A stretch of 57,633 nt of DNA, counting the filler, from Dugesia japonica (lineage: Eukaryota), in NCBI GenBank assembly GCA_001938525.1. It is 5 parts of 5 records of this genome, joined end to end, with 100 filler letters (N's around TTAATTAATTAA, not from the genome) between each part and the next. Parts side by side here need not be neighbours in the genome. Positions count along the whole stretch, not along the records: positions 1 to 10,100 come from MQRL01264415.1; 4 more parts are not named here. One strand, written 5' to 3'. The notes beneath the pieces were generated by a model. The model saw nothing but the letters and a program-made list of their open reading frames with translations. It was not told the DNA's origin and did not search any database. The translations under genes were made by a program, and so were the position numbers. Positions 1 through 55,932 of this stretch are shown piece after piece. Numbering within the stretch: position 1 is the first letter of the stretch; every line of letters begins with the position of its first letter.

Positions 1-274
1 TTTTTTAAAAATTTAAAATGTTTTATTAAATGTTATTTTTTTTAAAAATTTTTATTTATTTAAATTTATTTTAATTATTTATATAATAAATTAATATAAT
101 AAATTAATATAGTAAATTAATATAAAAAATTAATATAATAAATTAATATAATAAATTAATATAATAAAATAATATATAATTAATATATTAAATTAATAAT
201 TAATTAATAATTAATTAATTATTAATTAATAACTAATTAAATTATTAATTAATAATATTTAATTAATATAATAA

Positions 275-490
275 ATTATAATAAACTACATTGATTTTAG
301 TTAATTTTTTTTTGAAATTTTGAAATTTTTTTTATTTAAGTTTATTTTAATTGTTATAATTGATTTATATTAATTAATTATATTTATATTAATTATAACA
401 ATTAAAATAAACTAAAATAAATAAAATGTGAAAAAATTAAAAAAAAATGAAATTTAATAATAAAAAAAATCAATGTAGTTTATAATAATT
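275..490. repeat. Imperfect AT-rich palindrome inside low-complexity DNA
   Basis: 339-361 AGTTTATTTTAATTGTTATAATT is the exact reverse complement of 391-413; 281-298 pairs with 466-483. Confidence 0.75.
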
Positions 491-902
491 AAAAGAATCT
501 TAAATAAATAAAAAAATAATAAAATTTGATAAAGCATTAAAATTAAAAGAAAATTTTAATTTAATAAGAATTTAAAAATTAAATTTAAAATAAAATCCGA
601 ATGTAAATTTAATTTAAATTTAATTAAAATAATTCAATAAAATTTTAATAAAATACAAACATTTTTGTAAAAATTTTATAAATATTGGTTAAATCAATCA
701 AGAAGTTATATATCTGAAGAAGACAATCGTCGAAAATACGAATAATAAAAAGAAACAAAAAAAACATTTTGATAGAAGTTTATATTTTAATGAAATCTCA
801 AATGCGATCAATAGTTAAGTGCAACATTTATTCTCACAATAATTGTAATTGTATAACTAAACTTTATTAATAAAAATAGCAAAAATTACAATAAATACAT
901 GT

Positions 903-2144
903 TTAACAACGAGAAACAAGTTTTCTCATTCCAATCGTAAAGAAATCCTTTGTTCTGGATTCAATACAGGCACGCAAGGCAATTACGACAGAACCTTGGT
1001 TTTTATAGATTTTATCATCCACGACAACAGGTAGATGTTTAAAAAAGTAATAATTAGTAATCGAGATGTCCAGCAAGTACGGAGGATGAGGCGAAATTAC
1101 GTAGCCCAAGTCATGTAACCGTCGTAGTCATTTGTGCAGCATGTGGCCGAGCATTGTCATGAAGAGCAATTGGACGTTTTCTGTTGACTAAAGTTGCATG
1201 ACGAAGTTGGAACTATCTATGCATTTTTTACAATATTTGTTCGCTGTATTAGTTTAACCGGAATACAACTAAGCGCTTACGATAACCTTCTTTCGACGAC
1301 ATTGGGGTTTCGGTAATTGTTATGGAGCTTGTTAATGGTCCAACCATTGTACACAACGCTTGCGCTTACCATATAATACACATTTTTCATCGCACGTCAC
1401 TGTTCGATCGATGAAGGGGTCGTATATATTCCGGAAAAGAATTGACGAGCAGACTTCAAAACGCCAACTTTTTGTTTTACATACAAGTCATGCGGCACTC
1501 ATTTATCAGACTTCTTCACAGTAGTGGGAAAGGAGGACGCGAGGACAATGTAGGTCAAAGGGGGGTAATCGTCGGAACCGTTTCCAATGGTTACGGTTCC
1601 CCCCTTTGACCTACATTGTCCTCGCGTCCTCCTTTCCCACTACTCTTCACTTTGCCTAATTTTTTTGAGTTGATTCAGAATTGCTACATTTAACTATTGA
1701 GCAAACTATCGAATAGTTGTGCGTAGATCTGCCTTAATCAATTAGTTCAATTTTTCATTATCAACGGAAACTGGATGTCTATGATCTTCTAAATTTTCCA
1801 AGCTCTCATTTTTATATCTAAAATGTTGGAACCACCTCCTAATCGTCTCCTGGTTCTATGCTCAATTGATGTTTCGATTCGCCACTGCATCCTTGTTGCC
1901 GAGTTTGTACTCCTAAAGATAAATGGCACGCATTTGGATTTTCATTCCATATTTGTAATCTTTAATGAAATGACGGAAATTTTGCAATATTAAAACAAAC
2001 ACTAAATTAATACAGACCACTCTTATATACAGTTCTTTTAAATAATAATTAAAATAATTTAATAATGTTTAGTTATTGTCTTTGAGCTATTTCAGTTCAA
2101 AAGTTTTGAATTCAAAAAAGGGCATTATTTTCTTACCAACCTGA
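903..2144 (-). mobile_element. Decayed mariner transposon (transposase pseudogene about 903-1950)
   Basis: Minus strand gives N-terminal EYKLGNKDAVANRNIN, then VNRKRPIALHDNARPH and LGYVISPHPPYLLDISITNYYFF (mariner LHDNARPH and HPPYSPDLAPSDY motifs) with stops and frameshifts. TIR-like TTACCAACCTGA near 2133-2144. Confidence 0.9.
1520..1644. mobile_element. 125-bp hairpin mini-element with AGTAGT...ACTACT ends and 6-bp TSD (putative miniature Polinton derivative)
   Basis: Perfect 46-bp TIRs at 1520-1565 and 1599-1644; CTTCAC direct repeats at 1514-1519 and 1645-1650; interrupts the mariner pseudogene. Confidence 0.85.
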
Positions 2145-2626
2145 AATCAAAATAAGTAATAATATTTTTAAAATTTGTACAAAATTATATTTATGTGGTT
2201 TCGGTTTTAATATTAAATAACAAATCTACATTTATATTGACGAATTCGAATATGAAAAAAGTGCAATGGCGTGCGGTTTATCTGTTTTTCTTTCGTTTTT
2301 GATAATAATTCTAATTTTCGAATTTGTTTTCATCAGGAATTGACTTTTTCAATGGTTACATCCAATAATTATTCTCGCTATAATTGCAATTGTATATTTA
2401 AAACATATTCAAATAGTAGTCATAAACTTTTACAAATTATAATTTATGTAAAAAATGTTTTCATTAATTAAATTTGTTTCTGGCGTTGAATGTGTCTATT
2501 AATTTATTCTTTAAATATTATTTTTTTTATATTTATAAATATTTTATTTGGACTTCAGTGTTAATATTTTAGTATCTTTTAAAATTTCACAATAAATACA
2601 CTGGTGTTTGATTTGAATTGATTTAG

Positions 2627-5600
2627 GCATGGGATATTGGAGATGTAATAACTTGCTGTATCGATTTAACTGAAGCTAAATTAGAATATTTTAGGTAATT
2701 TTGGTTTTATATTTATTTCTATCAAAATTAATTTATATAATTAATTTTATAATAATAAATTTTTCAAAATTTCATTTCTTGATTCGTTATTCAAATTTCC
2801 ACCAATAGTTTTCAGGTAAAGTTTATTGTCACTGAAAAATGTATATTCTAATAAAACAGTTGTTTAAAAATTGAAGAAATGAGTGAAAATAAAAATGAAG
2901 AAATCTAATACCTCCTTATTGAATTATTCTAAATTTAATATCAACGATAAAGTTCAATAATTATAGAAATCATTTTAGTTATAAATTTTTCTACTTTTTT
3001 TGTAACACAATATTTTATGATTTCTTTCTTTTAAGGAACTATTTTTTTCTTCCTCATTTCTGCTTATTTTTAAGTTTTAGAGAACAAATTATTTGTAATA
3101 ATGTCACTTTATAAATTAACCTAAAAGAGAATAATTGATTTCATTGGATTAGTTTTTAATTAATTTCCGGATGAATAATTCCATCGTTAGTGCACCTTAC
3201 TAATGATGGATTAAAGTTTAATAATTAAACATTATATATAATGTTAAATATGAATAAGAATAAAATAAGAACTGAAAATATAAATGTAATTATACAACAA
3301 TAATATCTGTTTATATAGTGATATCAGGTATAGCAATTACTGAATTGACCCTGCGGGCAATTATTTCATCAAACAGCCAAACATTAGTTTTTTCAGATAT
3401 ACACACAAACATACAATTAACTAACATTAAATATTTAATTATAATTAAATTAACTAATATCATCTCATCTCATATCCTCCACCTTATAATTCTTTAACCA
3501 TTTAATATTTCGGATTATAATCTTCACAGCTTCATTTATTAATTTGTAACTTCTTTCATCTGATTTTCTTTTAAAATAAATGAACTTTCATATCGATTAT
3601 CAATTTTATTTCTAATATAAATTTTAACTAAAACTTTTTGTCCAACTTCAAAGATTTGCTCAGGCTCTTCAGTTTTGGTAATTTTTTGGGCAATCTTGGT
3701 CAATAATTTCCTCGTACTGGTCAGTTTGGGTAATTTTGGGGCGATTGAATCGCCAGCTCGAGCATATATTTGACCATCACCAGCTAAAATTGACCAAACC
3801 ATGGAAATTGACCGGATTCGACCTCACTGAATAAATTATTACCTAAAACGAGTAAAAAATTTGACCGATTCGATCACACTGAGGAAATTTTCTAAAACAA
3901 TTAAAATATTACGTCATGTATACTGGAATACATTCAGTTTTTTTCAAACACTTACGGAATTTTACGTAATAATTACAGTTCCCAACTAAATACCTATGAA
4001 AAATTCTAAAACACTTGCGTAATTTGACGTAATAAAAAAGTTCCAACTAAAAACTGGGATTAAGTCAATCCTCTTACATCAGTGAAGGGAAGTGTTTCAG
4101 TGCTCTCTTATTCCTCTACTAGAGACGATTTGGTCATTATTTTGCTTTTAATTTATTTAACAATTTTTTCAATTAATGATGCTGATGGATAACGAAAACG
4201 GTGGGTATTTTCAATTGGTTCACGACATTCTCTGATCACTAAATGCTTTCTGCATCATTTTAAGCGTTTCCGTTGCATTAATTTTATTTTTCACACGCAA
4301 ATTTAATGCAATTTTTAATTCAAATATATCAGTTCAAATTGATGCGAATACACAAAGAAACTATACATCAAAGGTGTGCATATTAAACTGAAATTAATAG
4401 TAGTATACTGGTAAAGAGTGTTTGCGACTATAATTTTCGCGTGAGTTTAAAAATCAAAAATAAAATTCTATAGATTCTTGCCGAGAATTATTGTTATTAG
4501 CTTATTCTCCGGTAACGCTGACGCTGTGTAAATTTACACGTAGCTTAAACTTTGCAAACTAACGACTGCAACAAAGTTCTTGAATGTAGAATTTTTACCA
4601 TTTCTTTTCACAAAATTTGAATATAGTGCTTTGTCTAAGTGTCATATTTTGGGGTTTGATCATCAATCCAGAATGTTTCTATAATTAGTTTCCAGTTTTT
4701 CTAATTGATTATTTGTTGTTAGTGTTATTTTTTTGGCAGATAAGTTAGTGGTTGTAGAAACATATTTCTTAATGCTACCAAAATTTTTGAAGATAGTTCT
4801 TATGTCTGATCAATTCAATCCAAGATGGAAGAAATTTTGGACTGCTATTCACCACTTTAAATATGTTAGCATTCATTTTAAATTCGAACTTCAAACCTTT
4901 TCTGAATTGTTCAGCAAGTTTTATGTGCATTTCTTCTATTCTTTTTTCAGCCACCTTTTATGATTTTTTATGCAATTTATTTTATTTAATGCATGTTATC
5001 AATTTAATCAAATTATATATATATATATATATATAATTTTGCATAATTCCCTGTATTTATATATTATTTTGTATCACATAAATTTAATTTAACTAAAACT
5101 ACTGAATACTATATTAGACCATATTACTATTTTTAATGATTAATTTAATACAGAATTTCATATATTCGTATAGTATTTATTTGGGGATTCCTCAAAGTAT
5201 AAATAAATACATAAAAGGAAATAAAGCAATAAAAATTCTTTATGAATTTAAAAAATCGCTTTAATGAAACAGCGTCTGTAAATTAATAACTAATTAAAAT
5301 TTATAAAGTTAAAGAATAATGGCAATCTTTTCATAAATAACTTAACACGCCATTCAGTAAGGTATTGCGAATTTCAACTGAGATAGAAATTATTTAATTT
5401 GTTTAAATAAATAAATTATTGATGTTATTGTTTTTGTATTACGTTTTAATAGAATCAACTGATATTGTGAATTCAATGATGAGCGCTACAAACCCATCTA
5501 ACAATTATGTTCTGGGGTGTGCCCAACTCGAACCCGCCCCCTTAACCCGAAAGAAATGACTGCTTTTTAAGCGCAAGCTGGATTCAAATTTTAATTAAAA

Positions 5601-7120
5601 CTTTTATATATTAATATTTCTATGCTTAATGCTAATATATAATTTTATAAATGCCTTACTAGGTAATTATATTTGTTTTTTGAATTTCGGATAAAAAAAT
5701 GAAATTTGCTAACTTTTTCAGATTATTTTTGCTTTACTCAATTAGGCATGGAGAAAACAAATTAAAGAGAGTAGTTATAAATATTTTTAGTACTTGAAAT
5801 CTATAGTTTGATCTTAAAAGCCTACGGTATTCAAACTGAAAGTTTATTCTAGTTTTAATTGAACAAAAAATATAAACCAATGTTTAATATTCAAAAATGT
5901 CTGGTATCCATTAAATATAATTTCTAAATTGCCTTTAAATTTTAAAATACTTCATAAGGTAGTATCTTTTACCCCAATCTATTTGTATTGTATTATTTTA
6001 TAAATATCTATAAAACTCTTCATTTGAAAAAAAATGGATCGTTTTAAAGAAATTGAGTCTCTCTTAATTCTTTGATTTTTACAAAACGTCTCTTTTAATC
6101 GATTTCGAAAATCTTTACAACATGTTGGCTTGAATTTTAAGAAACAAAGAATTTCGTTTGGTATTGAAAAATTACATATCAATATCAACCCGCACCCAAT
6201 GGGGCCCTCAACCCGAATTTTTTTAAACTCGGTCCGCACTTTTGGCTACAGCCCGCTTTAGCACACCCCAGATTATGTTTAGATATTTTCAAATATTCTA
6301 TAATAAATTCAGAAATGTTATTTAAAGGATTGTTTTATTTAAATCCGAGAATTGAAAAAATTTCACGTTTCTCTAATTTTATCGCAGCGATTTATCGTTA
6401 TCTGATAATACTATTTGTTTATATTGATTAAGAAATTATTAATTTTCTAATACAAGCGAAAAAGTTTATTAAAAAAATTCATTTTTGAACAATATTATTA
6501 TAATTTTATGCAAATTTTTGGTAATTAAATATTTCTTCAATTATTCAGAGATTTATGCTGAAAATAGAACAATTAATTTTAGGTTGTTTTAATAAATACA
6601 AAAGTTTTTATTTGGGAAAATTTTGACTGAACGTTAGCTATTTTTTAGCTAACTTTTTCATCAGGTTTTTTATCTAATCCAGTGTTTCCCAACATTTTTA
6701 AATCTATGTCTCACCAAAGCCTCTATAAAATTCAAATTCCCACTATAGAATCCACGCCCCACATTGGGAAACACTGTCCAAAAAAGTATAACAAATAATT
6801 CGTATATGTTGTCTATCTCTGAAGCTACCCGGCAACAGGGCGCAGAAATTATTATATTTGAGGCTACCACAACTCTAGTTTCGACTGAAAGGGTAAAAAG
6901 CTTTAATTTAAAAATGGGTTCATTTTCAAATTGCTAACGTTGGGAAACACTGATCTAATCTTTGACTTGAATTTATTAAGTTTTTTTTGAAGGAAAACTA
7001 GTGTTATCACGAATAAAATATTTCCGAGAAAACTCTACAATTTTCTGTGGTCAGTATAATTAATTATAATTTATCATTGGAAAATCGAATTTTTCTTTTA
7101 TTAATTATTATATTTATTTG

Positions 7121-7151
<31 letters not shown>

Positions 7152-7447
7152 AGAAACGGTAAGTCCTTGGGATTAATAACGGACAAAATACGTGTAGGGC
7201 CTAACATTGTTTATTACCCAGCTGTTAGCTTATCTCAAGGTGACAGTATAACGTTAAATTTCGGAGGATCTATGTTTTTGTTAGTTCCTAGTACTTTTAT
7301 GGCAAAGATTCTTTAAAAAACCTTTCTAGGTATCCAGTTGAAAGTTATAAGCCCATTCAACATCAAAATATCCAAGATCTTGTAAAAGCTCAGTGCTTAA
7401 TTGGATACTTGGAAAGATTAATACCAATAACAGTGGATTGTTTAAAG
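2627..7447 (+). CDS. RNF123: RNF123/KPC1-like E3 ubiquitin ligase, internal exons encoding the end of the SPRY domain (exons 2627-2694, 7154-7279, 7330-7447); partial gene
   Basis: GT-AG exons join in phase to AWDIGDVITCCIDLTEAKLEYFRNGKSLGLITDKIRVGPNIVYYPAVSLSQGDSITLNFGGSMFLYPVESYKPIQHQNIQDLVKAQCLIG, which matches the RNF123 SPRY end and following YPV.GY.PLQ...DLV.AQ segment as I recall it. Confidence 0.85.
3460..3660 (-). mobile_element. Ty3/Gypsy integrase C-terminal remnant with putative polypurine tract
   Basis: FEVGQKVLVKIYIRNKIDNRYESSFIL resembles the GPF/Y module, followed on the minus strand by purine-rich AAGGTGGAGGA. Confidence 0.5.
4220..4330 (-). mobile_element. Mariner transposase N-terminal HTH fragment
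   Basis: Minus strand reads CIKF..KNKINATETLKMMQKAFSD. Confidence 0.6.
5512..6271. mobile_element. hAT-type non-autonomous element (760 bp) in the RNF123 intron
   Basis: TIRs CTGGGGTGTGC / GCACACCCCAG; 8-bp TSD ATTATGTT at 5504-5511 and 6272-6279; subterminal AACCCG motifs. Confidence 0.85.
6680..6952. mobile_element. hAT (Charlie-like) MITE in the RNF123 intron
   Basis: TIRs CAGTGTTTCCCAAC / GTTGGGAAACACTG; 8-bp TSD ATCTAATC at 6672-6679 and 6953-6960. Confidence 0.9.
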
Positions 7448-9949
7448 GTTTATTTTGAATTTTTTACTGAAAATTATTAATTTCTTTATTATTTTTTTTA
7501 TTTTGCATTTCAATTTAAATAACAAATATTAGTGCAAATAGACAAACATTGCTTATAAAATATTCAGCAAATATTGTCCGAGTATTACTTCACTGCTTGT
7601 TTACTAAACTTCTCATATTTTTTGTCAAGGAAATTCTCACTTTCACATCGATAAATAAATATAAGTAAAGAAAAATTTTANCATATAAAAATAGTCAAAT
7701 AAAATAGTTTCCATATGTATCGCAAAACAGACATGGAGTGTTTTAAACAGTTACCACAAAGTGCTACTTAAGAAAAAATAAGACAAGTATGGAGAATTTT
7801 GATTTATTTTTCATCTGAAGTATATTTTTAAATTCTTTTTTAAAATCTGATTTATTATTGATATTTTCTATATACGTAAAAACTTTAGAAATTAATAGTT
7901 AAGAATATCTTAAATTGGAAATTGTTTTTATTCTATTGAAATAATAACATAAAATTATTCTATAATTATAATATAATTTAAATTTTAACTTACAAGTCAA
8001 TTTCGATTTAACATCACCCTTATTTTTAATTTAAATAAAATATGAAAATTCCATTCGATTTTTCGTCAAAAATTAAAACGAACGGAATTATATAAAAACA
8101 TCTCTTAACATAAGATGAGTTGATTATGTTATGATAAAATTTCATAAACTGTCGCAAATATCAATATTAAAAAAAATCTATTAGTTTATATAAATTATAC
8201 TTTAAAACAAATAAAATTTTATTTGAATGGTTCCATTGCAATTTTTCCCTTATTGCACGCAATATTGAAAGCTCAGTATACGTAAAATCCTCGTTATTTA
8301 AACGTTCAAGGTTATCTTTTTAAACTACTCAAATCTGACTCCTATTGTATATCAGTGCAAGTTGTCATACTCCACTGCATAAATTCAGTAATTCTATCAG
8401 ATCAATCAATTCAATATACACATGCTGAAAAGTCAGCTAAGTCATCTTTAGTGGGACAAAGTGAAGAGCAGTGTGCTGAGTAGATGTGCTGAACCATGTG
8501 CAAGATGGTGTGACGAGATGATTTTGCGCGGCCATATGTCATGAATGACTACGTTCAAATAGCGTAAAGGGTGATGTTTAAATGGTTCATCTGTTTTTCT
8601 GGCCATAACAATTTTAGTTTCTTTAATTACGGGCAAAATAATTATTTGAAATTTAAAAAAATTATCAACACGATTTTGCGTCATCCCATACTTTTTAATT
8701 GACGTAAAATCGAAATTCACTTGTATATTATTAGTTATCTCGATATCAGCAATGAATTTACTGATATTAGTATTACATTACTATTATTAAAAGTATATGT
8801 ATTTTCATGATTCGCATTTAAAATTAAGATACATCCAAAAATTTTGTATTGAAAGCTTTAATTTTTCTATTTTATCGTAGGTATGCCATTTCATAAAATG
8901 TAATATTGGTAAAAAAAATTGTGATTATTGATAATTTCAGATTTTAGTTTTTTCTATAATTGTTTTTTAATAAAGTTATTATTTTCATTATTGAATTAAG
9001 AAGTAAATTTCTTCAGATATTTTTGTGAAAAAATTGCTCATATGAAAAAAAATTTCTATTTTTTGCGATCAAATAATTTTTATTCAGTTTCTGTTTTGGA
9101 GTGATTAAATTTTCTGTCATCAGTTGTTTGATATGAATAATGNNNNNNNNNNNNNNNNNNNNNNNNNNNNNNNNNNAATTTTTCCAAGTCAAAAAACGAA
9201 TATTTTATTTTATTCTAAAATCATTTTAGTCTATTTCTGAGAACGGTATGATTATTTTTAGATATGCTCTTCAACCGATAATCAGAAGGATTTGAAAGAA
9301 TATTATTTCGAAGAGAATATTTTGAAATCTTTAGACGATCAAATCAGTACTCAATGTTGTTGTTGGTTGATTGGTAGCAATCTGCTTTCTCATTTGGAAA
9401 TTTTAATTGTAAGCTAATGTTATTCGAGTTTTAAAAAATTCTTAAATTATATTTTTTGAAACTCAAGCAGTAAAAATAAAATATTTAAAACTTCTCAATA
9501 TTAGTTGGTGTTTACTATCTGGCTTTCAAGAGTGTATTCGTGGTGAATAATATACGTTTGGAATACAAAAAGTGAGCAAAGTCTTGATTTATCCCTCTAA
9601 AATCACAATTTTTTGGTTTTTATGGTAATCTCTATTCCATGTTTTACTACTTGGTGGTTGGTTTATTACTTGTTGCAATTTTTTGCCAGAATTTCAGATT
9701 CATAACTGTTGTTTGCATGTGTTTACAGTGCTAAACTATGAGATCTTTGGTATAATCTTAGTATAAGATGTTTTAAAAAAAATAAGATGTTTTTAAAAAA
9801 TAAGATGTCTTGCTTAACTAGCAAAAATATTTAAATATTTAAAAAAATTCTAATTAAACCAATGTCTAAACAACAAAATCGAAAAGAAATTACAAATAAT
9901 ATTTTTTCCAAACTCGAAATTCGTGAAATGCAATTCACCAATTCAACTA

Positions 9950-10200: not shown

Positions 10201-10329
10201 GAAAGTTGGGTAAACAACGATCACCAAATATTTGCTCCTTATAAAATTATGTACTATCTTTACTAATTGCAAACGCAACTAATTCCTTCTTTCTTATCGA
10301 ATAAATTCATTTTTCTTATTTAATCCTAA

Positions 10330-11050
10330 TTTGACCAATACTGAAGGTTCAACGCGTAAACGTTTAACCGTCTAGTGATTAATGTTCCGTTATCATCACG
10401 TATATTAATTTCTATATTGTTTATACATGTTGTTGCAATCAGTAAATACATGGAATTATCAACTATTGTTTTGTACTACTTCATCAGTTTCATGTTTTTC
10501 TATCCATATAAATTTCAAAAGAGGAACTTTAACTTCTCCTACGATTATAGGTTCAACAATACTACTATAGATGAACATTTGTTGATGCAACTTAATTATA
10601 TTCGGATTTCTAATACCTTGCAATATACCACCTTTCAATTCTGCATGAGAATATTGTTGTTTTGCTAATCCCAATGTTTTGCCAAGACTTTATCGACGGT
10701 AATATCGAATGACATCATTTCTTAGTGACACTTGAAATAGATTATTTGCTTTAAATAGTATAAAATAGTTCAAAACCGCTTTCTGTTAAATATTTATTTA
10801 ATTCTTCATTTTCTGTTATGTATAATTCATCTTTAAACTGTATAATATTATAACTTACTTAAGAATATTTTATTTTAAATTTTACATATTCTGTTGGAGA
10901 ATTGTCTTTAAATGCTGTATACCTAATAAAAAAATATCCAGGAAAGAAGGAAGCATTTTAGGATACAAGTTCAAGAGACATTTCTATCTTACTTTTTAAT
11001 TTTACATTTAAACATAAGATTTCATCTAATTCAGTAATCACACAACCCCC
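10330..11050 (-). pseudogene. Polinton minor capsid (penton-like) protein, copy 1, decayed
   Basis: QQMFIYSSIVEPIIVGEVKVPLLKFIW then, after a frameshift, MYLLIATTCINNIEINIRDDNG; homologous to 20950-21210. Upstream boundary is approximate. Confidence 0.8.
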
Positions 11051-12209: not shown

Positions 12210-14186
12210 CTAACTTGGTAGTAGCGGTAAACACCGATTGTTGCCAAAAATATTTTGCAGAGGTGGCGATCTAGAAAAGTTTATTAAATGGTGTGAAATA
12301 TACTTTGAGGCAAAGAACATCTTTGTGAAAAAAGATCAAGAACGTTGGGTAACTTGTATGGTTTATTTAATGGAAGATTTAATGGAAGCATATGTGAAGA
12401 TAGAAGAAAGTTGACGGATATCGAGAGATTGCGATTAGCTTTTGAGAGCAAGTGAGACATAATAAACGATTTACAGAATCTTGAGGAAGATTTGATCGAT
12501 AGAGTTTCAGCAAAGGGAGAGCTAACAAAAGAAAAACTCTTATCAAAAATGCTAATAATTTGTACAGATAGTAAAAAAAGCAAAAGTAGAGATTATCATG
12601 CCAAAATTGGAGAAAGTAGAAGAGTTAAAAGAAACGCTATCATTGGTTAAAAAAATAGAAAGAAGAAAACCTATTAACGTAGTAATGAGATACGCGGGTG
12701 TAACACCTAAAGAACGTGCTGAAGAAAGGAAACAAAATATCAAGAGAGTTACGAAAAGAACAAAACTATAGTGTTGAACATGCTAGAGTTATGGGCATAC
12801 AAAAAGAGAGTGTACAAAGAATTTTCATGTGGAATGTTGGACTTGTCATAAAAAAAGACATTTAAGTAGAAATTGTCCTGAAAAAAATCACCAAAATATT
12901 TTTTTTAGATGAGAGAAGATAAAATTCTAAAATCAGACAACAAACAAAAGATTATAGTTGGAGAAAACAAATATCATAATGTGGAGAATGAAGAGAGTTT
13001 TTCTGAGACCATAATAGAAAATGAAGATCCAAGAAGAGAATACCCAAAAGGCAGGGCTTCATCAGTAGAGGAGTTGGTCGGAGCCATTCATTAAACATGA
13101 TACCGTTCGAATATTTTCTAGAGGCCAAGAAATGGTATGAGATGATTTAAGTGAGAGAAAAGGTTAACAGACTCCTACCAAGAGAAAATTTCAATGATGC
13201 GGAAGTTAACTAAGCAGAATTAATAGGAACAATTGAAGAGAAACAGAATGTAGAAATTTAAAATGATAAAATGCAAGGGATACCTAGAATTTCAGTGATG
13301 ATCAAGGGTGAACAGTTCGATTGTTTATTAGATACAGAAGCAAGAATAAATGTGATCAGTATGAAAGGATTTAGTAGACTCGGAGAAAGAATGTTATAGA
13401 AATTCGAAGAATGGTTGCATTGCGCGAATACCAGATATAATTGGTGGAGTGGAATTTCAAAAATCTTTTGGGTATTATTTTCAAAAGAAGTGAAAGGTAG
13501 ACATCAATAATCATTGAGAAAAATTTGTTTGCAACATCGATGCAAAATTTGGAAGGCAGATACAGACGGGTGAACGATTGAGACTTGCAATGGAGATTCT
13601 AGAAATGACCAAAGATCATAGATTGATCGCGATTATTCAGAATAATGAGGATGTATTTATGGCGGATCAATGGGACATTAGATGCACACATTTAACAAAG
13701 CATAGTATAAACACTAAAGAAGGTCCAATCAATAAAAAACCGTATCGTCAACCAATGAATCTAAAAGAGAAGATTGAAGAGGCCGTCAAGAATCTGTATG
13801 ACAACGGTATCATCTGGAAGTGTAATTCTCAATTGAATAAGCCATTAATCTGCGTTTGGAAAAAGGGAAAAAAGGATATATGATTATTCTTAGACTTTAG
13901 ACAGCTCAATGCAATAACAGAAAGACAAGCTTTTCCTATATCATATGTGAACAAAACGCTGTATGCTTTGGAATATACGCAGTATTTCATCTCAATAGAC
14001 TTGGGAAATACATACTATTAAGTGAAGATTCTCTAGAGAAGACGGCTTTTTCGACCAAAAAAGGGCAATTTTGTTTTAATAGAATGCCTTTTGGTATTGC
14101 AGCAGCACTAAGTACGTTACAGGAAATATTGAATAAAGTAATCATGAAAATAAAAGGAGCGATGGTTTATCCAGATGATATTCTCA
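12210..14186 (+). mobile_element. Ty3/Gypsy retrotransposon remnant (gag CCHC knuckles, aspartic protease, RT truncated at YxDD)
   Basis: CWTCHKKRHLSRNC; LLDTEARINVI; KKPYRQP; LDFRQLNAITERQAFPI; TAFSTKKGQFCFNRMPFGIAAA; MVYPDDI; many stops and frameshifts. Confidence 0.92.
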
Positions 14187-14243
14187 TGTATGTGTGTTGT
14201 GCATAACATGAAGTATGAATTGATTTTCTACAAAGAAAATCTA

Positions 14244-14585
14244 TTGTTTGATAGTACTTTTCAGATTGAAACAATATTGAAATGTGAATGGGGCAGAAGG
14301 CAATTCAAAGGAGTGTATACAATAGAACGCTTGCCAGATCTTTTACAAAATGGATCCTATTTGATCAATACATACACATCAAATTTAGATGGTGAACATT
14401 AGATTGCTATTCGTGTCAAATCAAATATCATTCGTGTATTTGACCCAATGGGTATGTTTTATCCATCATTGCTGGTCACAAAATTGGAGCGTATGCAGCA
14501 ACGTGTCGAGTATAACCAAGCCATGTATCAGAATCCATTGACAGTTTTATGTAGACAATATTGTATTGAATAGCTGAAAAGTTAG
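14244..14585 (+). pseudogene. Polinton adenain-like cysteine protease
   Basis: FKGVYTIERLP...INTYTSNLDGEH*IAI...VFDPMG...YNQAMYQNPLTVLCRQYCI shows the H, D, Q, C catalytic order of adenovirus-type proteases; two apparent Trp-to-stop changes. Confidence 0.85.
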
Positions 14586-14623
14586 TATAAACAATCTTTA
14601 TGTAATTATCAATAATATTTAAA

Positions 14624-15087
14624 ATGTCTGTATTTTTTATTGAATATGAAGCTTTTCAGAATAATAAAGGTGACTATCTAATTAAAGAATTGTTTATAAT
14701 AGATGTGGATAATATTCTTCAATTATTTTATTATATATTTGCCATGACAGGATCAATGGGTTTTTTATCAAAATCTGCTTAAACCACTAATGCGTATTTA
14801 CGACTCTGGCGTCATCATTTCAGGTGGATTGATGGAGATTGTAAATTTGATCCCATTCAAATTCTCAACGACATTCAAGCAATTTCTAATGATGCACTAT
14901 TTTCGTGAATGATCACATGAAGGGAAAGAAAATCAATACTTTCAAACATATTTTCCCAAATCTTCGAATTGTTAATTATAACTTAAATGAACATCTTCTA
15001 TTATGTATACCAGATAATATTTCCTGCCCATATTATAATCATGGAGATTATTGTGCATATAAAAAGTTTAAAGCTCTGGGTACATAA
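14624..15087 (+). pseudogene. Polinton accessory ORF, possibly DEDD-exonuclease-like, with a Cys/His tail
   Basis: MSVFFIEYEAFQNNKGDYLIKELFI...TTNAYL...HHFRWIDGD...CPYYNHGDYCAYKK directly downstream of the protease; one stop and a frameshift. Confidence 0.5.
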
Positions 15088-15124
15088 ACTGTCATAATGT
15101 AAATAAAAATATCTTTTGATATTA

Positions 15125-15133
15125 TTAATAATG

Positions 15134-15192
<59 letters not shown>

Positions 15193-15242
15193 NNNNNNNN
15201 NNNNNNNNNNNNNNNNNNNNNNNNNNNNNNNNNNNNNNNNNN

Positions 15243-15272
<30 letters not shown>
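15125..15272. repeat. (AAT)n microsatellite; similar tracts at about 29120-29277 and 40645-40840
   Basis: Direct reading; each tract contains an N gap. Confidence 0.95.
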
Positions 15273-15273
<1 letters not shown>

Positions 15274-15299
15274 TAATCAATTACATTTAAAAGATCATG

Positions 15300-15885
15300 A
15301 TTAAATTGTGGAATTTTTCACGTTTAAAAATAATATTTTCATTAATAAATTTAAAGGTTAGGGTATGAAAACTCATGTCAAAGATGTGAAATTTCACAGT
15401 TTACCTTAAGGTTTGAAAGTTCAAGCCATAAGAAAAACATTTTAATTAAACGATTTTATATATAAATACTCAATGCACAACGCTTTAAAGGTCTTTTACG
15501 AACTCATATTTGAAGTGTAATAATTCACATGCTAATAAAAAAATTATTATTTCATTGTTTACTTTTCGCACGTTTAAAACAAGTAATTAGGTGTGAAAAA
15601 TCACACGTCAATAAAAAATAATTAGGTGTAAAAATTCTCACATTTAAAAAAAACAATACATAATGTAAATGTAAAAGTCCATTGTTTACAATTAAAGTGT
15701 GAAATTTGGCTCTAAAGGTGCCAATTTTCAAATCTATTGTTGTTTACATTGTGAGGTGTGAATTTTCACAGCTAAAAAATAAAGTTGATTGTTTACATTA
15801 AGGTGTGAAAATTCATACCTATTGTTATTATTTTATATTATGAAGTGTAAAGTGACCTGTAAATCATCTGCGCCAGTGCACTCAT
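15300..15885. repeat. Degenerate repeat tract of GTGTGAAAATTCACA-like motifs ending in TGCGCCAGTG
   Basis: Recurring TGTGAAA, TTTCACA and TGTTTACATT motifs. Confidence 0.55.
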
Positions 15886-17066
15886 AACCACCCACTGATA
15901 TCTGTTTGCTTTAAACTGATTCATTTCACCTTCATCATTGCGCTAGAATCTTCCCTTTTCAAACTATAATTTTGATTTTTCCGCCATCTTTGAACTGTAA
16001 CATTTCTTCCGGCATTTTATACAAGGTTATTTTCTCTATATTTTATGTACATAAGTGTTTAGAAAAAATTATCGTATGGTTGTTCAGAGAAATCTACCAA
16101 TTTATGTATTTATTTGTTGGTGTAATGATAAACAATTTTATTTTTTAATTCATTGTGTATTGCCATTTTTGTTCTGAGTTATTCTAAGATCTTCTATGTT
16201 GTTAGCTATTTCCCTAATTTCAAAACTTCAAGTTGGTGTCCTGCCTTTGAGTGCTTGTGTATACTTCCATTTCGATAAAAAGGAAACATTGTTAGATGCG
16301 TTATCCATTGTCTTTTTCAATATGTGCAATTGTCATTTTAAACTGTAAATGAAAGCCTCAATCATTGTAATGTTGTACATGCCAGAGACCTTTTAATAAG
16401 TAAGAATATAGCTTGTTACGTTGTTTAACAATTTTGTCTACTTGTTGGTGAATGCATATTCAGTTAGACTTTGGAAAGGAAATAGCTGTACATTAGGTAT
16501 TATTTATATTATCAGTAGGTAAATAGTTCCACACTTTCCAAACCCCCAATGGTGACAAAATGGTTTATATTTATACATTTTCATAATGTAAATTTTCATT
16601 TTATTTTAATGGTAAAAGAAATTTTAAAATGCATTAAAAAATTGTTTAAAATTTTAAAAAACAGGGTGCTTTTGTTATGATAGGATCAAATGTAGTAGCT
16701 ATATTTGCAAAAAATCTTTTAAATTTCAAAAGCACTGCGCAGGTGTTGATTTCCCCTTTTTCCAAGCGATAATGGTATGAATGAAATGAAGCCGCAAAGC
16801 TAAATATACATTGTCTGAGGGAACTACACATATTTAATACGCCGCGATAAACAAATCAAAAAATATCGCACAAAAATAAAAGCCTATATATATGTTTGGG
16901 CTGCAACAGCCACGATGAAAAACTTACGACTAATAGTGAAAAAAAGATTAATAAATGTGAACGTGTAAACGAATTAAAAGAAAAGTGGAGGCATTGCCAA
17001 AGAAATAAATAAGGTAAAGATATAATAAATTAATTGATTAAAGTTTGACCAGGAGAATACGATATA

Positions 17067-18300
17067 CAGGGTGTTAGTTAAACATAGGACAAAAATTTAA
17101 AGAATTATTCCTAGCCTTATTTTATGAATAATTATATGGTAAAACTTTTTTTTAGGTCGTCTTGTTTCAAAGATACACACATTTAAAGATTTTAAAACAC
17201 AAACAATTTCAATACGCATAATATTTATTTACATTTATTTACTTACATTTTTTATTTACAGAAACTATTGAAAATTACCTCCACCAGCTAATATGCAGGA
17301 ATCCAATCTTCTCGTCATTGAATCACGCATTCTTTTGAAAACACCAGGAATGTTACTTATAGAATTACATCTATTGACGATCCGATTCCTTAAATCATCT
17401 TCATTTTCAACTGGCGTCTTATAAACTAAAGATTTTAAGTGGCTCCTTAAAAAAATTCAACCGGATTTAAGTCCGGAGATCGAGCAGGTCATGAATAAGG
17501 TCAGCCTCTACCAATCCAGCGATCGTGATATGTTGCATTTAGGGACCAACGATCTAGTCTACTAAAATGCGGTGGTGCTCCATCATGTATAAACCACATT
17601 ACTTTTCTCATTGTCTATGGTATATCCTTAAGCAAGTCGGCTAGCCTATTGTCCAAATAATTGCGGTATACCTCAGCGGTAAGTGTTCCTGGTAGAATCA
17701 CCGGTCCGATTAAAAAATCACCCACAATTCCAACCCAAACGTTCAATAAGAACTGATATTGGAAACGATCTTCACGTATCTCATGTGGATTTTCTTCCGC
17801 CCACACATGATTATTAGGAAAATTCATTATTTCATTTTTTGAGAAACTTGCTTCATTGGTAAACAGAATTAGGCTCAGTAGTTGAGAATTTTGAAAAAAT
17901 GTTTGTTTCAGCCCTTAACCAAATGCGATTCGAGGAGAAAAATCTCCGTTAATAAGTGCTTGAACGCGTTGAATGTGGTATGGGAAAAGCTTTAGTTGCC
18001 TCTACATTTTTCACATAGTGTAATTACTTACATTCAATGCGTTTGCTATTATTCTAGTTGAAGTATGTAAATCTTCCTCTACTATATCACACACATCTTC
18101 TTCAATTTCTATTATTCTTCCTGATTTTAGTCTTCCTTGTCCACTATTGTGTTTAAACGTGCCTGTTTCGAGAAGATGCCGATGAATTCTTTCAAAAGTT
18201 TTTCTATTAGGAACATAACGTTTTGGAAATCGTTCGGCGTACAACTGCTTTGCCTTTAATGAATTCACATTTGCTAACATATACATAAAATGCATGTCCG
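17067..18300 (-). mobile_element. Tc1/mariner DD41D-type transposon, decayed, one TIR visible
   Basis: MHFMY...YAERFPKRYVPNRKTFERIHRHLLETG; LFTNEASF; NVWVGI; WFIHDGAPPH followed by 41 residues to RSPDLNPV-E; TA-CAGGGTG terminus at 17065-17073. Confidence 0.9.
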
Positions 18301-18499
18301 TCCTTTTGCGTTTTTATATTGATTCTTATATGAGATTTAGGCATATTCTTAATATTTATTTTATATACATCTAGGTTAATTTTAAAAAAGGCTTACTTTT
18401 AAGAATATTTAAACAAATCTTTTTTAATTAATCTTGATTGACAATAAAGATATTATGTATAATAAATACATTGCAAGCTACAATATTAATACTACATTT

Positions 18500-20695
18500 T
18501 TCTTCTTTTCTATACTTCTCGAGCTCAATGTACTGTAGCTGGTACATCCGTAATTTGCTCAAGTCAAGTACAGATTGAACAATATAGCTTGGACGATCTA
18601 GGCATTATGAATCTTTATTCATCAAGGCATTATGAATCTTTATTCATCAAGGCAGCAATCAGGTCTTCATCAATCTTAATGGATTTCTTGAAGCTAAGTT
18701 CTGAAGAATAAGTTATAAGCTTTTTGCTGATATTACATAATCGTAAACCCATCCTTTTCTTTAAATTTTCGACAGATTTCCCATACAAACTATTGTTCAA
18801 TAGCTAGTAATAATTTTTCTCAAGCCCACTATTACATTCTACTATTAATGCAGTGTTTGTTTTGATATATTTTTCAAGTATACAAGCTTGAGTAAATTTT
18901 ACTGCTCTATAGACAACTTTAACATCAACTCATAATCTTATATACATTTGTAGCAGTTTCCAATTCAATACATAATTTCTTTAGCATAATGAGTTAACAT
19001 TAGCTTATTCACTTTACTGTCTGGAGCGCTTCAGTGTTCTGCTGCTACTGGTAGATCGTTAGGAAAATTATGAATTTCTGTTGGGATTATCATGTCTAAC
19101 TCTATAGTGTACCCATTTGACAGTTCATCAAAATCCAAATACCTAAATAATTTTAATACTACTTTTAGTGCACCATTATGTTGCAGTCAATGTCTTCTTG
19201 CATAAATAACAATTTGTGGTTACAGCAAATGATACTTCTTGACCTCTTGATATTATAATTTTCTTATTCCCGTTTTCTTTGTAGTATGGTGTCACTAGAT
19301 TTTGATTAATTTCTTGAAGTTCTTTAAGAAAATCATATATGCATGCATCTCCAATGAAATTTTTGTAAGTTGATTTGTTAGTACAGTTATTTAAAAACGA
19401 CATTCTTGCTGAAACTGGCATATGTTTCTGAAAATGAACATCATCTGCTGGAAGAACTGATTCAAAATCAGCGTATATTATGAATGGTGGTGTCAAAGCC
19501 CTTAAACTCTAAGTTTTTCTCTCTAGACATAGTATATAGAGTGGTTCTGGTTTGAATTTTTTCACAAATTACCACATGTTTATCAAATGCTAACTTATAT
19601 CTAAATTCGTTTAAACCATTTGAGCACCATTTTGAATAAACTTGTACACCAGATCTTTCAACATCACGTTTCATTAATCTGTTCAAATCCATTATGGCTG
19701 TTTAATAATACTAATGTCCATTCTCTAACAACAAAAAATTAATTTTTTCTCCATCCATCACTTTAGACTTATGAATAATATCTAAATTTGGAAGTTTGAA
19801 AACCTCCTAATCGCCATCTTTACTTCATTTGAATTCCATGAAAAGACATAAACTGCATATCCTGGATTTTTTCGTTCAAATTTTCCTATATTATCCAGTC
19901 TCATTGGCATTTCTGATTCATCGATTTGTATTTTTCATATATTGATGCTCGGTTTCTATGATGTGGATGAACCACAATTTCTATAATAATTGCTAAAATG
20001 CTGTAAATAAAGCATTTATTAGTTTCATTCTTGATATTAACAATGGCCATTTTTTTCAGATTCGATGGAGTCGGTATATAGCCATGTCTACTCATATTTT
20101 CAATTTTAGTGATTTTGAAATCAACTTCCAAAATCCTGTTCAATATCCAGCTAGAGTCAAGCTCGCCTCTTATAGCAATTTTTTCATTTAATTGCTTTAA
20201 TTCATCTTGGAAAAAAATCATCACTTAATTGAATGGCCCTATTTAATATTCTCCACGTTTTTATTTCCTCATCCCTAATAAATTCAACGTTGATATCAAA
20301 TTGAATTTTTTACATCTTTCAATTCTTCAATAAGTTAAACAATAAAATTTTCTGTGATTCTAATTTGATTCGTGTTCCAACTTGAAATATCAATTTTTAT
20401 AATTTGATGGCATCGATATAAATCTCTTTTGATAACACCTTCATCTGCGTTGAGATTTACTGCTCCGCCAATCCTCTGATGTAATATCTTGTACACGATT
20501 GATTACATATCCTCCTGGTTCATTTATCACTGGTTCTGGCTCCATCATGATTTCTTCATCATCTTTAATTACGATAACTTCTATCTTAGTTCTCTTAGTT
20601 GCTACATTTATTTCCCTATGAGTCCTATCTAAAATAAATTTTAATGTTTGTTTCTTATTTTTCGAGAAACTAGATAAGTTGTCCTTATGAGCCAT
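18500..20695 (-). pseudogene. Polinton protein-primed family B DNA polymerase, fragmented with internal deletions
   Basis: GYIPTP...AIVNIKNETNKCFIYSILA; PPFIIYADFES (Exo I); CYLCKK; DLPVAAEH; RAVKFTQ...EKYI..NT; LLNNSLYGKSVEN (motif B). Confidence 0.92.
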
Positions 20696-20949
20696 ATAAA
20701 AACTTACAACCTAGACAAACAAAATACTTTTCACCATAAAACCATTGGCCATAGGGCACTTCATGATACTATGGGAGTCACTATTGTGACTCGCACTGGC
20801 GCAATAGTTTTGGTACAATTGACCTAAATAATAATAATTTGACTTTAATGAAGCTGTTAATAAAATAATGAAATACATTTAATATATTATATTATATTAT
20901 TTATACATTTAAATAATGTATAAATAATAAAATAATAAATAATGAAATG

Positions 20950-21885
20950 TTAATAAAATTTATGATTTTCATTTTTATCTATCCATACTGATTTCAACAA
21001 AGGAACACTTACATCTCCTACAATTAAAGGTTCAACAATACTATTATAGATAAACATTTGATTATATCGCTTTACTAGTTTAGGTTTTCTAATACCTGTA
21101 ATTATTACAGATAGATCATCAATCCCACTACGAACATAAGAAACGTTTTCTAATCCAAGAGTTTTCGTCAACCTTTCATCAAATATAACACTTTTAGTTC
21201 TATTTATCAATGAAAATCAAAATAGTTCACCTTCCTTTAGCATAAAGGTTTGAAATGGTTTTAAAATGTTGTTATAAAAATAATCATTTAACTGTGTTAA
21301 ATCATTTATATGCAAACCATCTTCAAATTCAAAATAATGTTTAGTGGTTATAAAATAGATATGTTTAAGGGATATGCTTTCAATTGAATCATCATTTTTA
21401 AAAGAATTAAAGTGAAGGGTAAATTTTCTGTCTAACATACGGTAATAAGCTGACATTTTAAATAATTTGATGGTATCAGATTTAAATCTTTCTTTTTGTT
21501 TAAGAGTACTGAACACCAAAGCACTTTCTGGACTAACAACGCTAGTATTATTAACTATTATCGTATTATTATTAAGAGTTACATTAGGTTTATAACCTTT
21601 ATCAAAACCTTTAAAAGAAATAGTTAAAAGAGTTATGTTTTGTTTGTTATAAATAAATAAAAACAAGTCATAACTAACTTGTTGATATATTTTTTAATCA
21701 ATTCTAGATTTACTATATATCGGAAATAATTGATATACAAAAATGAAATCTATCATGGCTACTTGCCAACTATCTTCCAAATAAATTGGATTTTGAAGCC
21801 CAACAATGAAATTACTACCATTATTATCCAGATGAAAATGGGGAAAACTATTACTCGGCAAAAGTGTAGAGAATATATTTCTCAT
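20950..21885 (-). pseudogene. Polinton minor capsid (penton-like) protein, copy 2
   Basis: N-terminal TLLPSNS...SNFIVGLQNPIYLEDSWQVAM and C-terminal QMFIYNSIVEPLIVGDVSVPLLKSV, split across three ORFs. Confidence 0.85.
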
Positions 21886-21932
21886 TATTAACTATTTGCG
21901 ATGCTAATATACAAGAAGGTTTTTCATATCTA

Positions 21933-22974
21933 CTACTTTACGTAATATTGTTTATTCTCGTTTGATCCTTTTGATATGATAATTTTTTCTTTTCGAAATA
22001 CTGTTGGTGACGGAATTACTTGTAGTTCTTGCTCATAGAACTTTCCTTGTATGAAATTATCTTCAAAATGTTTAATCACATACATGATTGAATTCTGTTT
22101 TGTATTGATTTTCGATATTTGAAACACTTCATCACTACAATTACTATCGAAATTTTTGATGAATGGAGAAGCTAATATCTTTGATATTCTAACATAATTA
22201 TCAACTTTATATTTCGGGTTCTTTATTGTTTTTTATTGTTGTCGTGTCAACCCCAACTTTAATTCATTGTTTGGACCTATATCAACTGGCCTGGCTCCAA
22301 TTAATCCTTTATGAGATGAATGATTATAACTATGAATGGGTTTTGGTAACACATTTATCAATGTTTTATTACCGGTATACAAAAACTATTTCTTCAAAGC
22401 ATCTCTCAATGTACGATTGAATTTCTCTACACGAACCACCTTGTATTGAGAAAATACAGAATAATAGTTAAATTTGAAATGCTTTATAAGATTTTTGGCT
22501 TTAGTATTGTAGAATTCTTTACCCAGATCTGTTTGTAAATTATATGGATGTCCATCTTTAAACATTGACTTGATTGCTGGCACCATATCATTAGTAGACT
22601 TTGATTTTATAGGTATAGCTCTTGCAAATCTACTAAAGGCATCAATACATGTCAAAATATACTTGAATCCTTTATTAATCTTTGAATATGGAATTATTTC
22701 CATCTAATCCATTTGCCATAAATCATCAATACCATATGTTTTATACGCTCTTGTTGGAAATCTTTTCAACATTGGCTTGTTCAGACTGTACGCTAGTTGA
22801 CTCGATAACCACTTTTTGGTCTTTTCTTGTTTTTTGTGCTGCTTTCATCAACTTTTCTACGCGACGAAAACCTGCGGGGTTTTTGGATCCGTCTATATCG
22901 CTTGTAGTTTGACCATTACAACAATTTGACAAAAATTTGAAATTAAAATTAGGTAATGATTGTATATCACTCAT
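21933..22974 (-). pseudogene. Polinton rve-type integrase with truncated chromodomain
   Basis: NPAGF..VEKL; YGIDDLWQMD; KYILTCIDAFSRFA; LQTDLGKEFYN; VEKFNRTL; QGKFYEQELQ; QYYVK. Confidence 0.93.
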
Positions 22975-23142
22975 TGTTTATATAAAATTAATTAAACCTA
23001 ATTCTGCTAATGCAATTGGAAGTAATGCTTCTATAAAACCTCNNNNNNNNNNNNNNNNNNNNNNNNNNNNNNNNNNNNNNNNNNNNTTAATTAATTAANN
23101 NNNNNNNNNNNNNNNNNNNNNNNNNNNNNNNNNNNNNNNNNN

Positions 23143-23358
23143 ACACGTCTTTATCTCCGCATCTTTTACAAATTCGACATTGATGCCAAACTGTATTTTC
23201 ACATCACGTAGTTCCTTTATTGCCTTATGTAATTCATCTATTAGCGTTTCTGGCAAAACTTTAAATGTTTGGTCTTTAAATGTTTTACTAGATTTTATCA
23301 GAATAATAGGGTTGTATTTTGTTATTATTGTGTTTTGTAGAGTTTTATATGTGCTCAC
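23143..23358 (-). pseudogene. 5' part of a second Polinton pPolB-associated ORF
   Basis: KIQFGINVEFVKDAEIKT matches KIQFDINVEFIRDEEIKT at about 20260-20315. Confidence 0.7.
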
Positions 23359-23374
23359 TGATCAAATATTTTGA

Positions 23375-24550
23375 AATTGCATAGATGTTGATGTAGTGTT
23401 TTGAAAAATTGCATGTACGTCTATGTAGTATTTTCAAACATAACATATATGTCTTTACAATATTTCCCAACATAACATAGATGTCTACGTATTAATTTCA
23501 AACATAACATATAACAAACGGTTACAAAATCCTATGTAAAACATAGGAAAAATAACACAAATATTGCATAGAAGTCTATGAAAGTTTAAATAAATTACAT
23601 ATACATCTATGTTATATTCTCAGACATAGTATATATGTCTATGTAATATTTTTAAACATAACATAGGTGTATGTCTATCAAAATACCTAATAAAGCTTCA
23701 TACACAGTAAACTAATTGAGTCTTATATACAGTAGACCAATGCATATCATATACTCAATAAACAATATAAATTCACTAGATTCATACAATAAACTCAATA
23801 AGGTCTTATAATACGCACATTAAGATCTATAAAGTCATATATAACACGCAATTAACCCAATATACTGAAATAATACACACATAATATACTCTATATATTC
23901 ATATAATACATATAATATACCCTATAATAAACACAATACACAAAATAATGTCATAGATTACAGCCAATAATATCAAATAATACATATATTTAACCTTATA
24001 AAATCATTGAAATACACACAATATACCCTATAGCCATTTAATACATACAATTAACTCAATATAGTCATATAATACACACAAATAATCCAATAAATTCTTT
24101 TAAATACACAGAATACACCTAATACATACAAATAAATACATAGAATAAACTTAATATAGTTNNNNNNNNNNNNNNNNNNNNNNNNNNNNNNNNNNNNNNN
24201 NNNNNNNNNNNTACAATAAACTTAATATAGTTATATAATACTTACAATGAATTCAATATAGCCATATAGTATAGATACAAATACCCAAATATAGTCACTT
24301 AAATACACGCAAATAATCTAATATTATCTTATGCACAGAAAACGATTTGGTCTTACACTCACTAAAACCTGATATGTCTTATATACATAAAACCTAATAG
24401 ACTTTATACACACATGAAATCAATGAGCATTATACACATAATAAATCTAATGAGGTTAATACATAGAAAACCCAATGGGCTTTATACACTTAATAAACCC
24501 AAAGGGTAAAATGCACACTTTAAACCCTAGAGTTATATAATACACATAAT
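23375..24550. repeat. Two abutting degenerate minisatellites of about 30 bp
   Basis: 23375-23690 units carry a CATAGATGTCTATG-like core; 23690-24550 units resemble AATACACACAATAAACTCAATATAGTCATAT. Confidence 0.75.
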
Positions 24551-33175: not shown

Positions 33176-33282
33176 NNNNNNNNNNNNNNNNNNNNNNNNN
33201 NNNNNNNNNNNNNNNNNNNTTAATTAATTAANNNNNNNNNNNNNNNNNNNNNNNNNNNNNNNNNNNNNNNNNNNNGGGATCC

Positions 33283-34243
33283 ATGCGAGATAAGATGAGA
33301 AATGGCAGACTAACTATTGTTTCACCCCAAGCTTCACGAGCTATAACACCCATTTGGAAAGCCAATAGCTTATTATCTGTTCATAATATCACCCATATGT
33401 ACAATACAAGTGCTGTCCAAAATTTTTCTGTTAGTACTGTTCAGAAAATTCTGAACAAGTACGGTTTTCGAAGTTATTCAGCAATTAAGAAGCCATNNNN
33501 NNNNNNNNNNNNNNNNNNNNNNNNNNNNNNNNNNNNNNNNNNNNNNNNNNNNNNNNNNNNNNNNNNNNNNNNNNNNNNNNNNNNNNNNNNNNNNNNNNNN
33601 NNNNNNNNNNNNNNNNNNNNNNNNNNNNNNNNNNNNNNNNNNNNNNNNNNNNNNNNNNNNAATCCTATCTTTATAAAAGTAGCGACATGGTCCATACATA
33701 CATGTCTGGGCTGCTTCAACAGTAATGGAGTTGGACTTCTGAAAAGAATCAATGGAAATATGAATGCCAAGAAATATCAAAAAGAGATACTTCATGATAT
33801 AGACAAAGTTGGTATATACTTAGTCTTTCCAAAAGCAGCATTTGTTTTTCAACATGATTTGGCTCCACCAAATAAAGCCAAAAGTACCCAGGCTTTCCTA
33901 AAAAATAACCATATTGATGTCTTACCCTGGCCAGGTAATTCTTCTGACCTGAATCAAATAGAAAATATCTGGGGTATCCTTAAACGGAAAGTAAGACCAA
34001 TGATACACAATTTTGCTGAAGAGTTATGGAATGAGATCCAAAGCGAATGGTACAATCTTTCTTGTAATCTATGCAGGAAAATTGTATTCTCGATGAAAAA
34101 ACGATTAGAATTGGTCAAAAAATCAAAAGGACATCTTATTAAATATTAAGACTATCATGTATTTATTTATTTATTAAATTTCGTGGCTGAAAATTAAAAG
34201 TTGTATTTTTTTATAGGGGTGAACAGACTTTTTACGAGTACTG
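33283..34243 (+). mobile_element. Tc1-like DD34E transposon (5' end lost in gap)
   Basis: FQHDLAP...WPGNSSDLNQIENIW with 34 residues between D and E; right end GGGGTGAACAGACTTTTTACGAGTACTG-TA. Confidence 0.92.
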
Positions 34244-55916: not shown

Positions 55917-55932
55917 TTAGATTTTAAATAAA

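Follow-up and report, generated by a model that had tools for sequence, protein, structure and literature searches.

A 125-bp AGTAGT-ended hairpin of Dugesia japonica as a probable miniature non-autonomous Polinton

The commonest end motif of Mavericks (Polintons) is (AGT)2//(ACT)2, which comes with 6-bp duplications of the target site (TSDs) that are perfect, as described in the sections of Barreat and Katzourakis (PMC8097293) drawn on here. In the same sections, intact vertebrate Mavericks are 12.7–24.6 kb long, have terminal inverted repeats (TIRs) of 46 to 1,447 bp with an average of about 400 bp, and mostly occur in low copy number with 1–38 intact copies per genome. The repeated end is linked there to jumping-back in protein-primed replication, as inferred from adenoviruses and tectiviruses. 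The relevant passages of Kojima and Bao (PMC10045372) also give a TSD of 6 bp for Polinton, compared with 4–5 bp for Ginger (Ginger1/2), and report 6-bp TSDs for IS3EU, with TA..TA termini, and for GingerRoot, with TA..TA or TG..CA termini.

Non-autonomous Polintons are already known by name. Polinton-1N1_DR (PMC9341505) is designated as such, and Polinton-N1A_NV has retained a capsid gene (PMC11296320), according to the parts of these papers that mention them. PolB-less polintons of more than 12 kb are apparently mobile in insects in the account of bioRxiv 10.1101/2025.02.07.637071, and the C. elegans passages of PMC11414722 describe TIR-only Polinton remnants, namely single TIRs of 744 bp left by rearrangement. 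For the lizard genome, the section on Polintons reports no non-autonomous copies (PMC3014272). The literature searched holds no non-autonomous Polinton as small as 125 bp: the passages of PMC6431247, PMC5499653, PMC8504770 and PMC5753468 contain nothing on miniature Polintons, and in full-text literature no miniature Polinton/Maverick or Polinton MITE was found described, although Repbase, Dfam and supplements, which lay outside this search, may list one. Experimental replication or integration of a Maverick was likewise absent from the literature passages on Mavericks.

The element described here occupies positions 1520–1644 of a stretch of 57,633 nucleotides from Dugesia japonica (GCA_001938525.1), referred to as the window in the following. 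It is 125 bp long, has a GC content of 53.6% compared with about 28% in the whole window, and consists of a left TIR (1520–1565, plus strand) that begins with (AGT)2, a spacer of 33 bp (1566–1598) and a right TIR (1599–1644, minus strand) that finishes with (ACT)2. The right TIR is the perfect complement of the left over exactly 46 bp, and the termini read AGTAGT...ACTACT. In a self-comparison of the window the element was the top inverted repeat among those with more than 20% GC. Folded as single-stranded DNA it reaches −67.3 kcal/mol (z = −17.5), and none of 200 shuffles was equally stable. It has no coding capacity. CTTCAC stands on either side (1514–1519 and 1645–1650), and the flanks are identical at length 6 only (lengths 2–11 tested). 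By base composition, the chance that a flanking 6-mer recurs is about 2.4e-4, and that of an AGTAGT start is about 3.3e-4. An earlier note on this DNA had reported the hairpin with its perfect TIRs, its termini and the CTTCAC repeats, and direct sequence comparison confirmed all of them.

The recipient of the insertion is a broken mariner transposase gene on the minus strand with approximate limits at 900 and 1945. A stretch of 51 amino acids matches the SETMAR transposase domain (E 1e-13), and the translations contain stops and frameshifts, which bears out the earlier view that the element sits in a dead mariner. Other Tc1/mariner-like remnants are located at 18011–18313, 33232–34149 and 37098–37940, two of them with the HTH domain DUF4817. 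A full mariner transposase was sought, with 0 hits among 10 candidates, and the empty-site test therefore rests on DNA contigs. Public data from 4 of 24 listed sequencing runs were compared with positions 1280–1880: contigs of the runs X1 and X5, which stem from two studies of the window's organism (organism A), contigs of X8 from a second organism (organism B), and raw RNA reads of X9. All three DNA-type runs (X1, X5, X8) contain a contig joint from 1517 to 1664, in which 146 bases are skipped and 14 letters stand between. The element and one target copy amount to 131 bases, and a further T in the window's T run brings this to the net gap of 132; the target is therefore single in these copies, which are paralogous mariners and not an empty allele of the 1514–1650 locus. 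A second mariner paralog, found in X1 only among the letters listed, joins 1473 to 1664 and shows one target-like site and a further 36-base difference. The divergence of the paralogs from the window is 8–14% (five X1 contigs among those listed). In X1 the filled site appears at each of its two junctions without any difference, although the window may itself derive from X1; in X5 the left junction is followed by 9 element bases and then by 4 letters without fit. The 125-bp insertion is common to these runs of two studies. A single CTTCAC in mariner relatives was the check that had been proposed for the duplication; the paralogous contigs carry one target, hence the 6-bp TSD is true, and the 125-bp hairpin is a genuine insertion. 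The perfect arms had also been taken to imply a recent event, for which they argue weakly, since 0 differences in 46 bp permit an arm divergence of up to 6% and the insertion is present in runs of both studies.

The earlier note had reserved doubt for the case of a unique copy, and this is answered by the public contigs. Loose ends that lead into unrelated sequence at 1520 (three contigs, X1) and at 1519 (three contigs, X5) place the same terminus at other sites. A single-copy X5 contig of 3,543 nt (X5 record 14) carries 1577–1644 with 3 differences and 1 gap, stops matching at 1644 and continues in a different flank, and an X1 contig of 71 nt (X1 record 5) covers 1573–1638 with a 5-base insertion at about 20-fold flank depth. 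Such contig details come from 17 of 146 loose ends and 24 of 581 pieces; among these 24 pieces no contig spans both arms, and contigs break at the repeat. Contigs fitting two places, that is the arms, make up 174 of 270 in X1 and 179 of 283 in X5. The summed depth in X1 and X5, which is not a copy number and includes overlapping short contigs, is about 14,000–24,000 in the arm bins, 508 and 1,329 in the spacer bin and 4–7 in the unique flank, so that the spacer bin lies 17- to 46-fold under the larger arm. For organism A this corresponds to roughly 100 to 8,500 ends, with bounds that allow up to 31-fold depth inflation. In organism B a single 32-nt contig with 2 differences has a depth of 625 compared with 2.5–3.3, about 220-fold. 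The identities of the X1 contigs, mariner contigs included, are 99% or more (51), 95–99% (58), 90–95% (129) and below 90% (32). Ends in several unrelated flanks together with high depth in all three DNA-type runs show dispersed copies of the end family, while TSD length and the closed 125-bp form are established for the window copy. The element thus belongs to a multi-copy, gene-less family with Maverick-type ends that is found in two organisms. In the RNA run X9, 3 partly fitting reads were found among 10.5 million (about 6% of the run), a result that speaks neither for nor against transcription and a sample in which small RNAs would be missed.

The family comprises two end types. Loose contig ends at 1520 and 1531 and the depth table divide the left TIR into outer bases (1520–1530) that are replaced in a sister subfamily and a core (1531–1565) common to both subfamilies. 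The sister type, recognised by loose ends at 1531 and 1633 in X1, X5 and X8, starts with AGTAG, departs from the window copy over the remainder of the outer 11 bases and keeps the inner 35; in the single-contig row of X8 it is not a perfect (AGT)2. Both types begin with AGTAG and short tandem repeats. The interiors directly inside the arm vary, with loose ends at 1563–1573 and 1595, of which those at 1563, 1568 and 1595 are represented by single contigs. A perfect 14-bp palindrome is present in two of these (X1 at 1568, X8 at 1563) and half of it in the third (X1 at 1595). We take this palindrome to be RFX X-box-like; the literature search gave no paper tying RFX to Polinton-type elements. The window copy has a diverged, imperfect palindrome in the same position (1580–1594), at the apex of its fold. 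Longer relatives are indicated by four X5 contigs that depart from the spacer at 1573. The relatives run on past the palindrome with other sequence, which suggests that a deletion or a fold-back on the far side of the X-box-like palindrome produced the short form; in the longer relatives this palindrome lies directly inside the end.

A second hairpin of 131 bp at 49419–49549 (z = −8.4) has TIRs of about 30 bp with 2 mismatches and also ends AGTAGT...ACTACT. Among the short inverted repeats of the window, the two strongest thus have a common end, which supports a class of AGTAGT-ended miniature elements. The missing TSD of the second hairpin counts against such a simple story, its flanks ACGGAA and AGGGTT matching at 3 of 6 positions. 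Past the first 7 bases it shows no clear similarity to the 125-bp element. The loci L076 and L079 share 13 nt with the second hairpin, a match that was dropped because it falls in ordinary interior sequence there.

Polintons are present in this genome, as integrase (PF00665), double jelly-roll capsid (PF21738) and polymerase pieces occur in the window. A degraded Polinton on the minus strand (18476–22916), in which no ends were recognised, contains a polymerase in several frames with stops (18.5–20.2 kb), a further gene at 20977–21900 (minus strand) and an integrase at 21936–22916 (minus strand) with 7 stops and 70% identity to P0004. A second degraded Polinton on the plus strand (54872–57034) has a double jelly-roll capsid fragment, a phospholipase A2-like ORF and a broken integrase with stops at 56.5–57.0 kb. 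The statement that the Polinton genes of the window are dead holds true for those tested, namely the two integrases and the polymerase, all of which have stops. Proteins of Polinton-integrase loci also have short, interrupted matches at 10202–10689 and 14304–15066.

A helper with the same ends was sought in the window and in public contigs. The best match to the TIR elsewhere in the window is 25 of 46 bases, and the Polinton remnants are without such an end. The window integrase has 202 relatives; an alignment from 40 of at least 120 retrieved one locus from viral contigs and 80 from metagenomes, the latter kept out of 192 confirmed stretches. In these 81 integrase-bearing loci the best TIR match has an E-value of 5.0, and none contains both ends or an X-box. 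TIR pieces of 22–24 nt had no exact match in viral, metagenome and prokaryotic contigs, where there is little animal DNA. The viral contigs, a collection poor in animal DNA, contained no AGTAGT with an X-box palindrome 35–65 bases on and, by exact pattern, no end of the second hairpin; a single-sequence search of them gave 0 loci. One metagenome contig (L045:11005–11828) has a Polinton-type integrase with a cluster of GC-containing hairpins and inverted repeats a short distance downstream.

The window contains further repeats and one host gene. An element of about 760 bp at 5511–6272 (ends within 1–2 bases) has short inverted ends and the 8-bp direct repeat ATTATGTT on both sides, and is hAT-like by TSD length; it had come up as a 6-bp-TSD match in a TIR-plus-TSD scan and is better read as an 8-bp-TSD element. 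A MITE-like element of 273 bp at 6680–6952 with CAGTG ends and the 8-bp TSD ATCTAATC is hAT-like as well. Satellite-like arrays with periods of 16 bp and 19 bp, strong GC skew and assembly gaps within extend over 31287–33700, and an intact-looking exon of the host Rcd1/CNOT9 gene lies at 45856–46179 on the minus strand (Pfam PF04078, E 2e-49).

Polintons/Mavericks are characterised by (AGT)2//(ACT)2 or (AG)3//(CT)3 ends, a 6-bp TSD and TIRs of 46–1,447 bp. The 125-bp element has the first of these end motifs, the window copy has the 6-bp TSD, and the TIR of 46 bp lies at the lower limit. An autonomous Polinton of 12–25 kb with protein-primed polymerase, integrase and capsid module is ruled out by the size of 125 bp and the lack of coding capacity. 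In being short and non-coding, with TIRs and a TSD, the element has the form of a MITE. The end motif and the TSD length together indicate a Polinton integrase, and we propose that the 125-bp hairpin probably belongs to a non-autonomous, MITE-like family of Polintons, which a full-size Polinton would mobilise in trans through its integrase. The earlier note had claimed mobilisation in trans in this sense, a claim that is supported in part. The TSD, the end motif and the multi-copy terminus speak for it, and none of the other superfamilies found described fits both motif and TSD; on the other side, no autonomous element with the same ends was found in the window or in the 81 integrase loci, and the suggested link to a Polinton helper is drawn from the signature of ends and TSD.

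Two other origins of the element have to be weighed against this proposal. A longer Polinton, or Polinton-ended element, might have inserted with a 6-bp TSD and later lost its interior at this one locus, in which case the other ends would cap longer elements and the 125-bp form would never have moved. The varying interiors next to the arm, including the four X5 contigs that diverge at 1573, the low depth of the spacer bin relative to the larger arm (17- to 46-fold) and the lack of a contig closing both arms among the 24 of 581 pieces listed would all fit such a collapse. However, another locus (X5 record 14) contains most of the spacer together with the right arm, which in X1 record 5 reach about 20 times the flank depth, and hundreds or more ends with varied interiors inside a repeat of 46 bp better fit short heterogeneous elements than full Polintons with TIRs of about 400 bp. 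We therefore consider a one-off collapse unlikely. We judge it improbable, too, that the element is an ordinary MITE of another cut-and-paste transposon with a 6-bp TSD (IS3EU/GingerRoot, 6-bp hAT subgroups or an unclassified group) and that its AG ends are coincidental. Subgroups of hAT with a 6-bp TSD are known from Repbase, hAT-like MITEs occur in the same window, no helper Polinton was found in the window or the 81 integrase loci, and the element resembles a MITE in its size, its hairpin shape and its high copy number. The ends of IS3EU and GingerRoot are nevertheless TA..TA or TG..CA, whereas those of the element are AG..CT, and both end types of the family carry AGTAG with short tandem repeats, an AGTAGT start having a chance of about 3e-4.

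An assembly artefact, a chance fold-back or a microRNA-like gene is very improbable. Perfect palindromes are prone to misassembly, but both junctions are present in X1 contigs with 0 differences, the left junction is present in X5, and the empty target is seen in the paralogs. The element has 24 Rfam matches to miRNA precursors, with a best E-value of 9e-11, yet none of them reaches its gathering score (best 63 compared with 137); they reflect the long stem, and a precursor identity was rejected as a stem artefact.

If the hairpin is a non-autonomous Polinton, a retrovirus-like Polinton integrase likely acts on the AGTAG ends, recognising them and linking them to host DNA across a 6-bp stagger. 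Copies could plausibly be gained through the protein-primed polymerase of the helper, which is predicted to use the (AGT)2 repeat for jumping-back priming. It is also plausible that, in analogy to adenovirus, the single strand that is displaced would form a panhandle, in which the 46-bp stem would rebuild a duplex origin. The same footprint would result if the integrase simply excised the element and reinserted it. More tentatively, and as a possibility that we hold short of probable, we speculate that true MITE families arise from Polintons/Mavericks: some 46 bp of end, with a host-factor palindrome of RFX X-box-like type just within it, would suffice for copying and integration in trans, with copy numbers in two related animals running from hundreds to thousands, an outer 11 bp swapped as if tracking different helpers, and at least two unrelated miniature families in one genome. 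The miniature elements would then be defective snap-back genomes of a DNA virus that integrates, and would map its origin and integrase site. A Polinton origin of the 125-bp family would show the bases needed by integrase and terminal protein and offer short in vitro substrates, would mean that helpers are active in genomes in which the Polintons that can be seen are dead, and would make some unclassified 6-bp-TSD MITEs assignable to a superfamily. Should the Polinton link fail, the element would be one more unclassified MITE.

In comparison with known systems, the element resembles the autonomous Mavericks/Polintons, as portrayed in the cited sections of PMC8097293, in (AGT)2//(ACT)2, in the perfect 6-bp TSD and in a TIR at their 46-bp lower limit. 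It differs from them in being 125 bp and not 12.7–24.6 kb long, in being gene-less, and in an apparent number of ends far above their 1–38 intact copies. With the named non-autonomous and polB-less Polintons, as far as the cited passages describe them, it would have helper dependence and Polinton derivation in common, whereas a capsid gene is still present in Polinton-N1A_NV and the polB-less elements of insects exceed 12 kb, and here the form is 125 bp and TIR-only. The C. elegans TIR remnants, as presented in the passages of PMC11414722, are alike in being a gene-less Polinton end and differ in not being a closed miniature with its own TSD. IS3EU and GingerRoot, in the passages of PMC10045372, are alike in the 6-bp TSD, but their ends are TA..TA or TG..CA and not AG..CT. 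Cut-and-paste MITEs in general are likewise short, non-coding and hairpin-forming, with high copy number, a clean TSD and subfamilies of variable interior. In contrast to these, the end motif and TSD of the family described here point to a self-synthesising virus-like helper rather than to Tc1/mariner, PIF, hAT, MULE or piggyBac.
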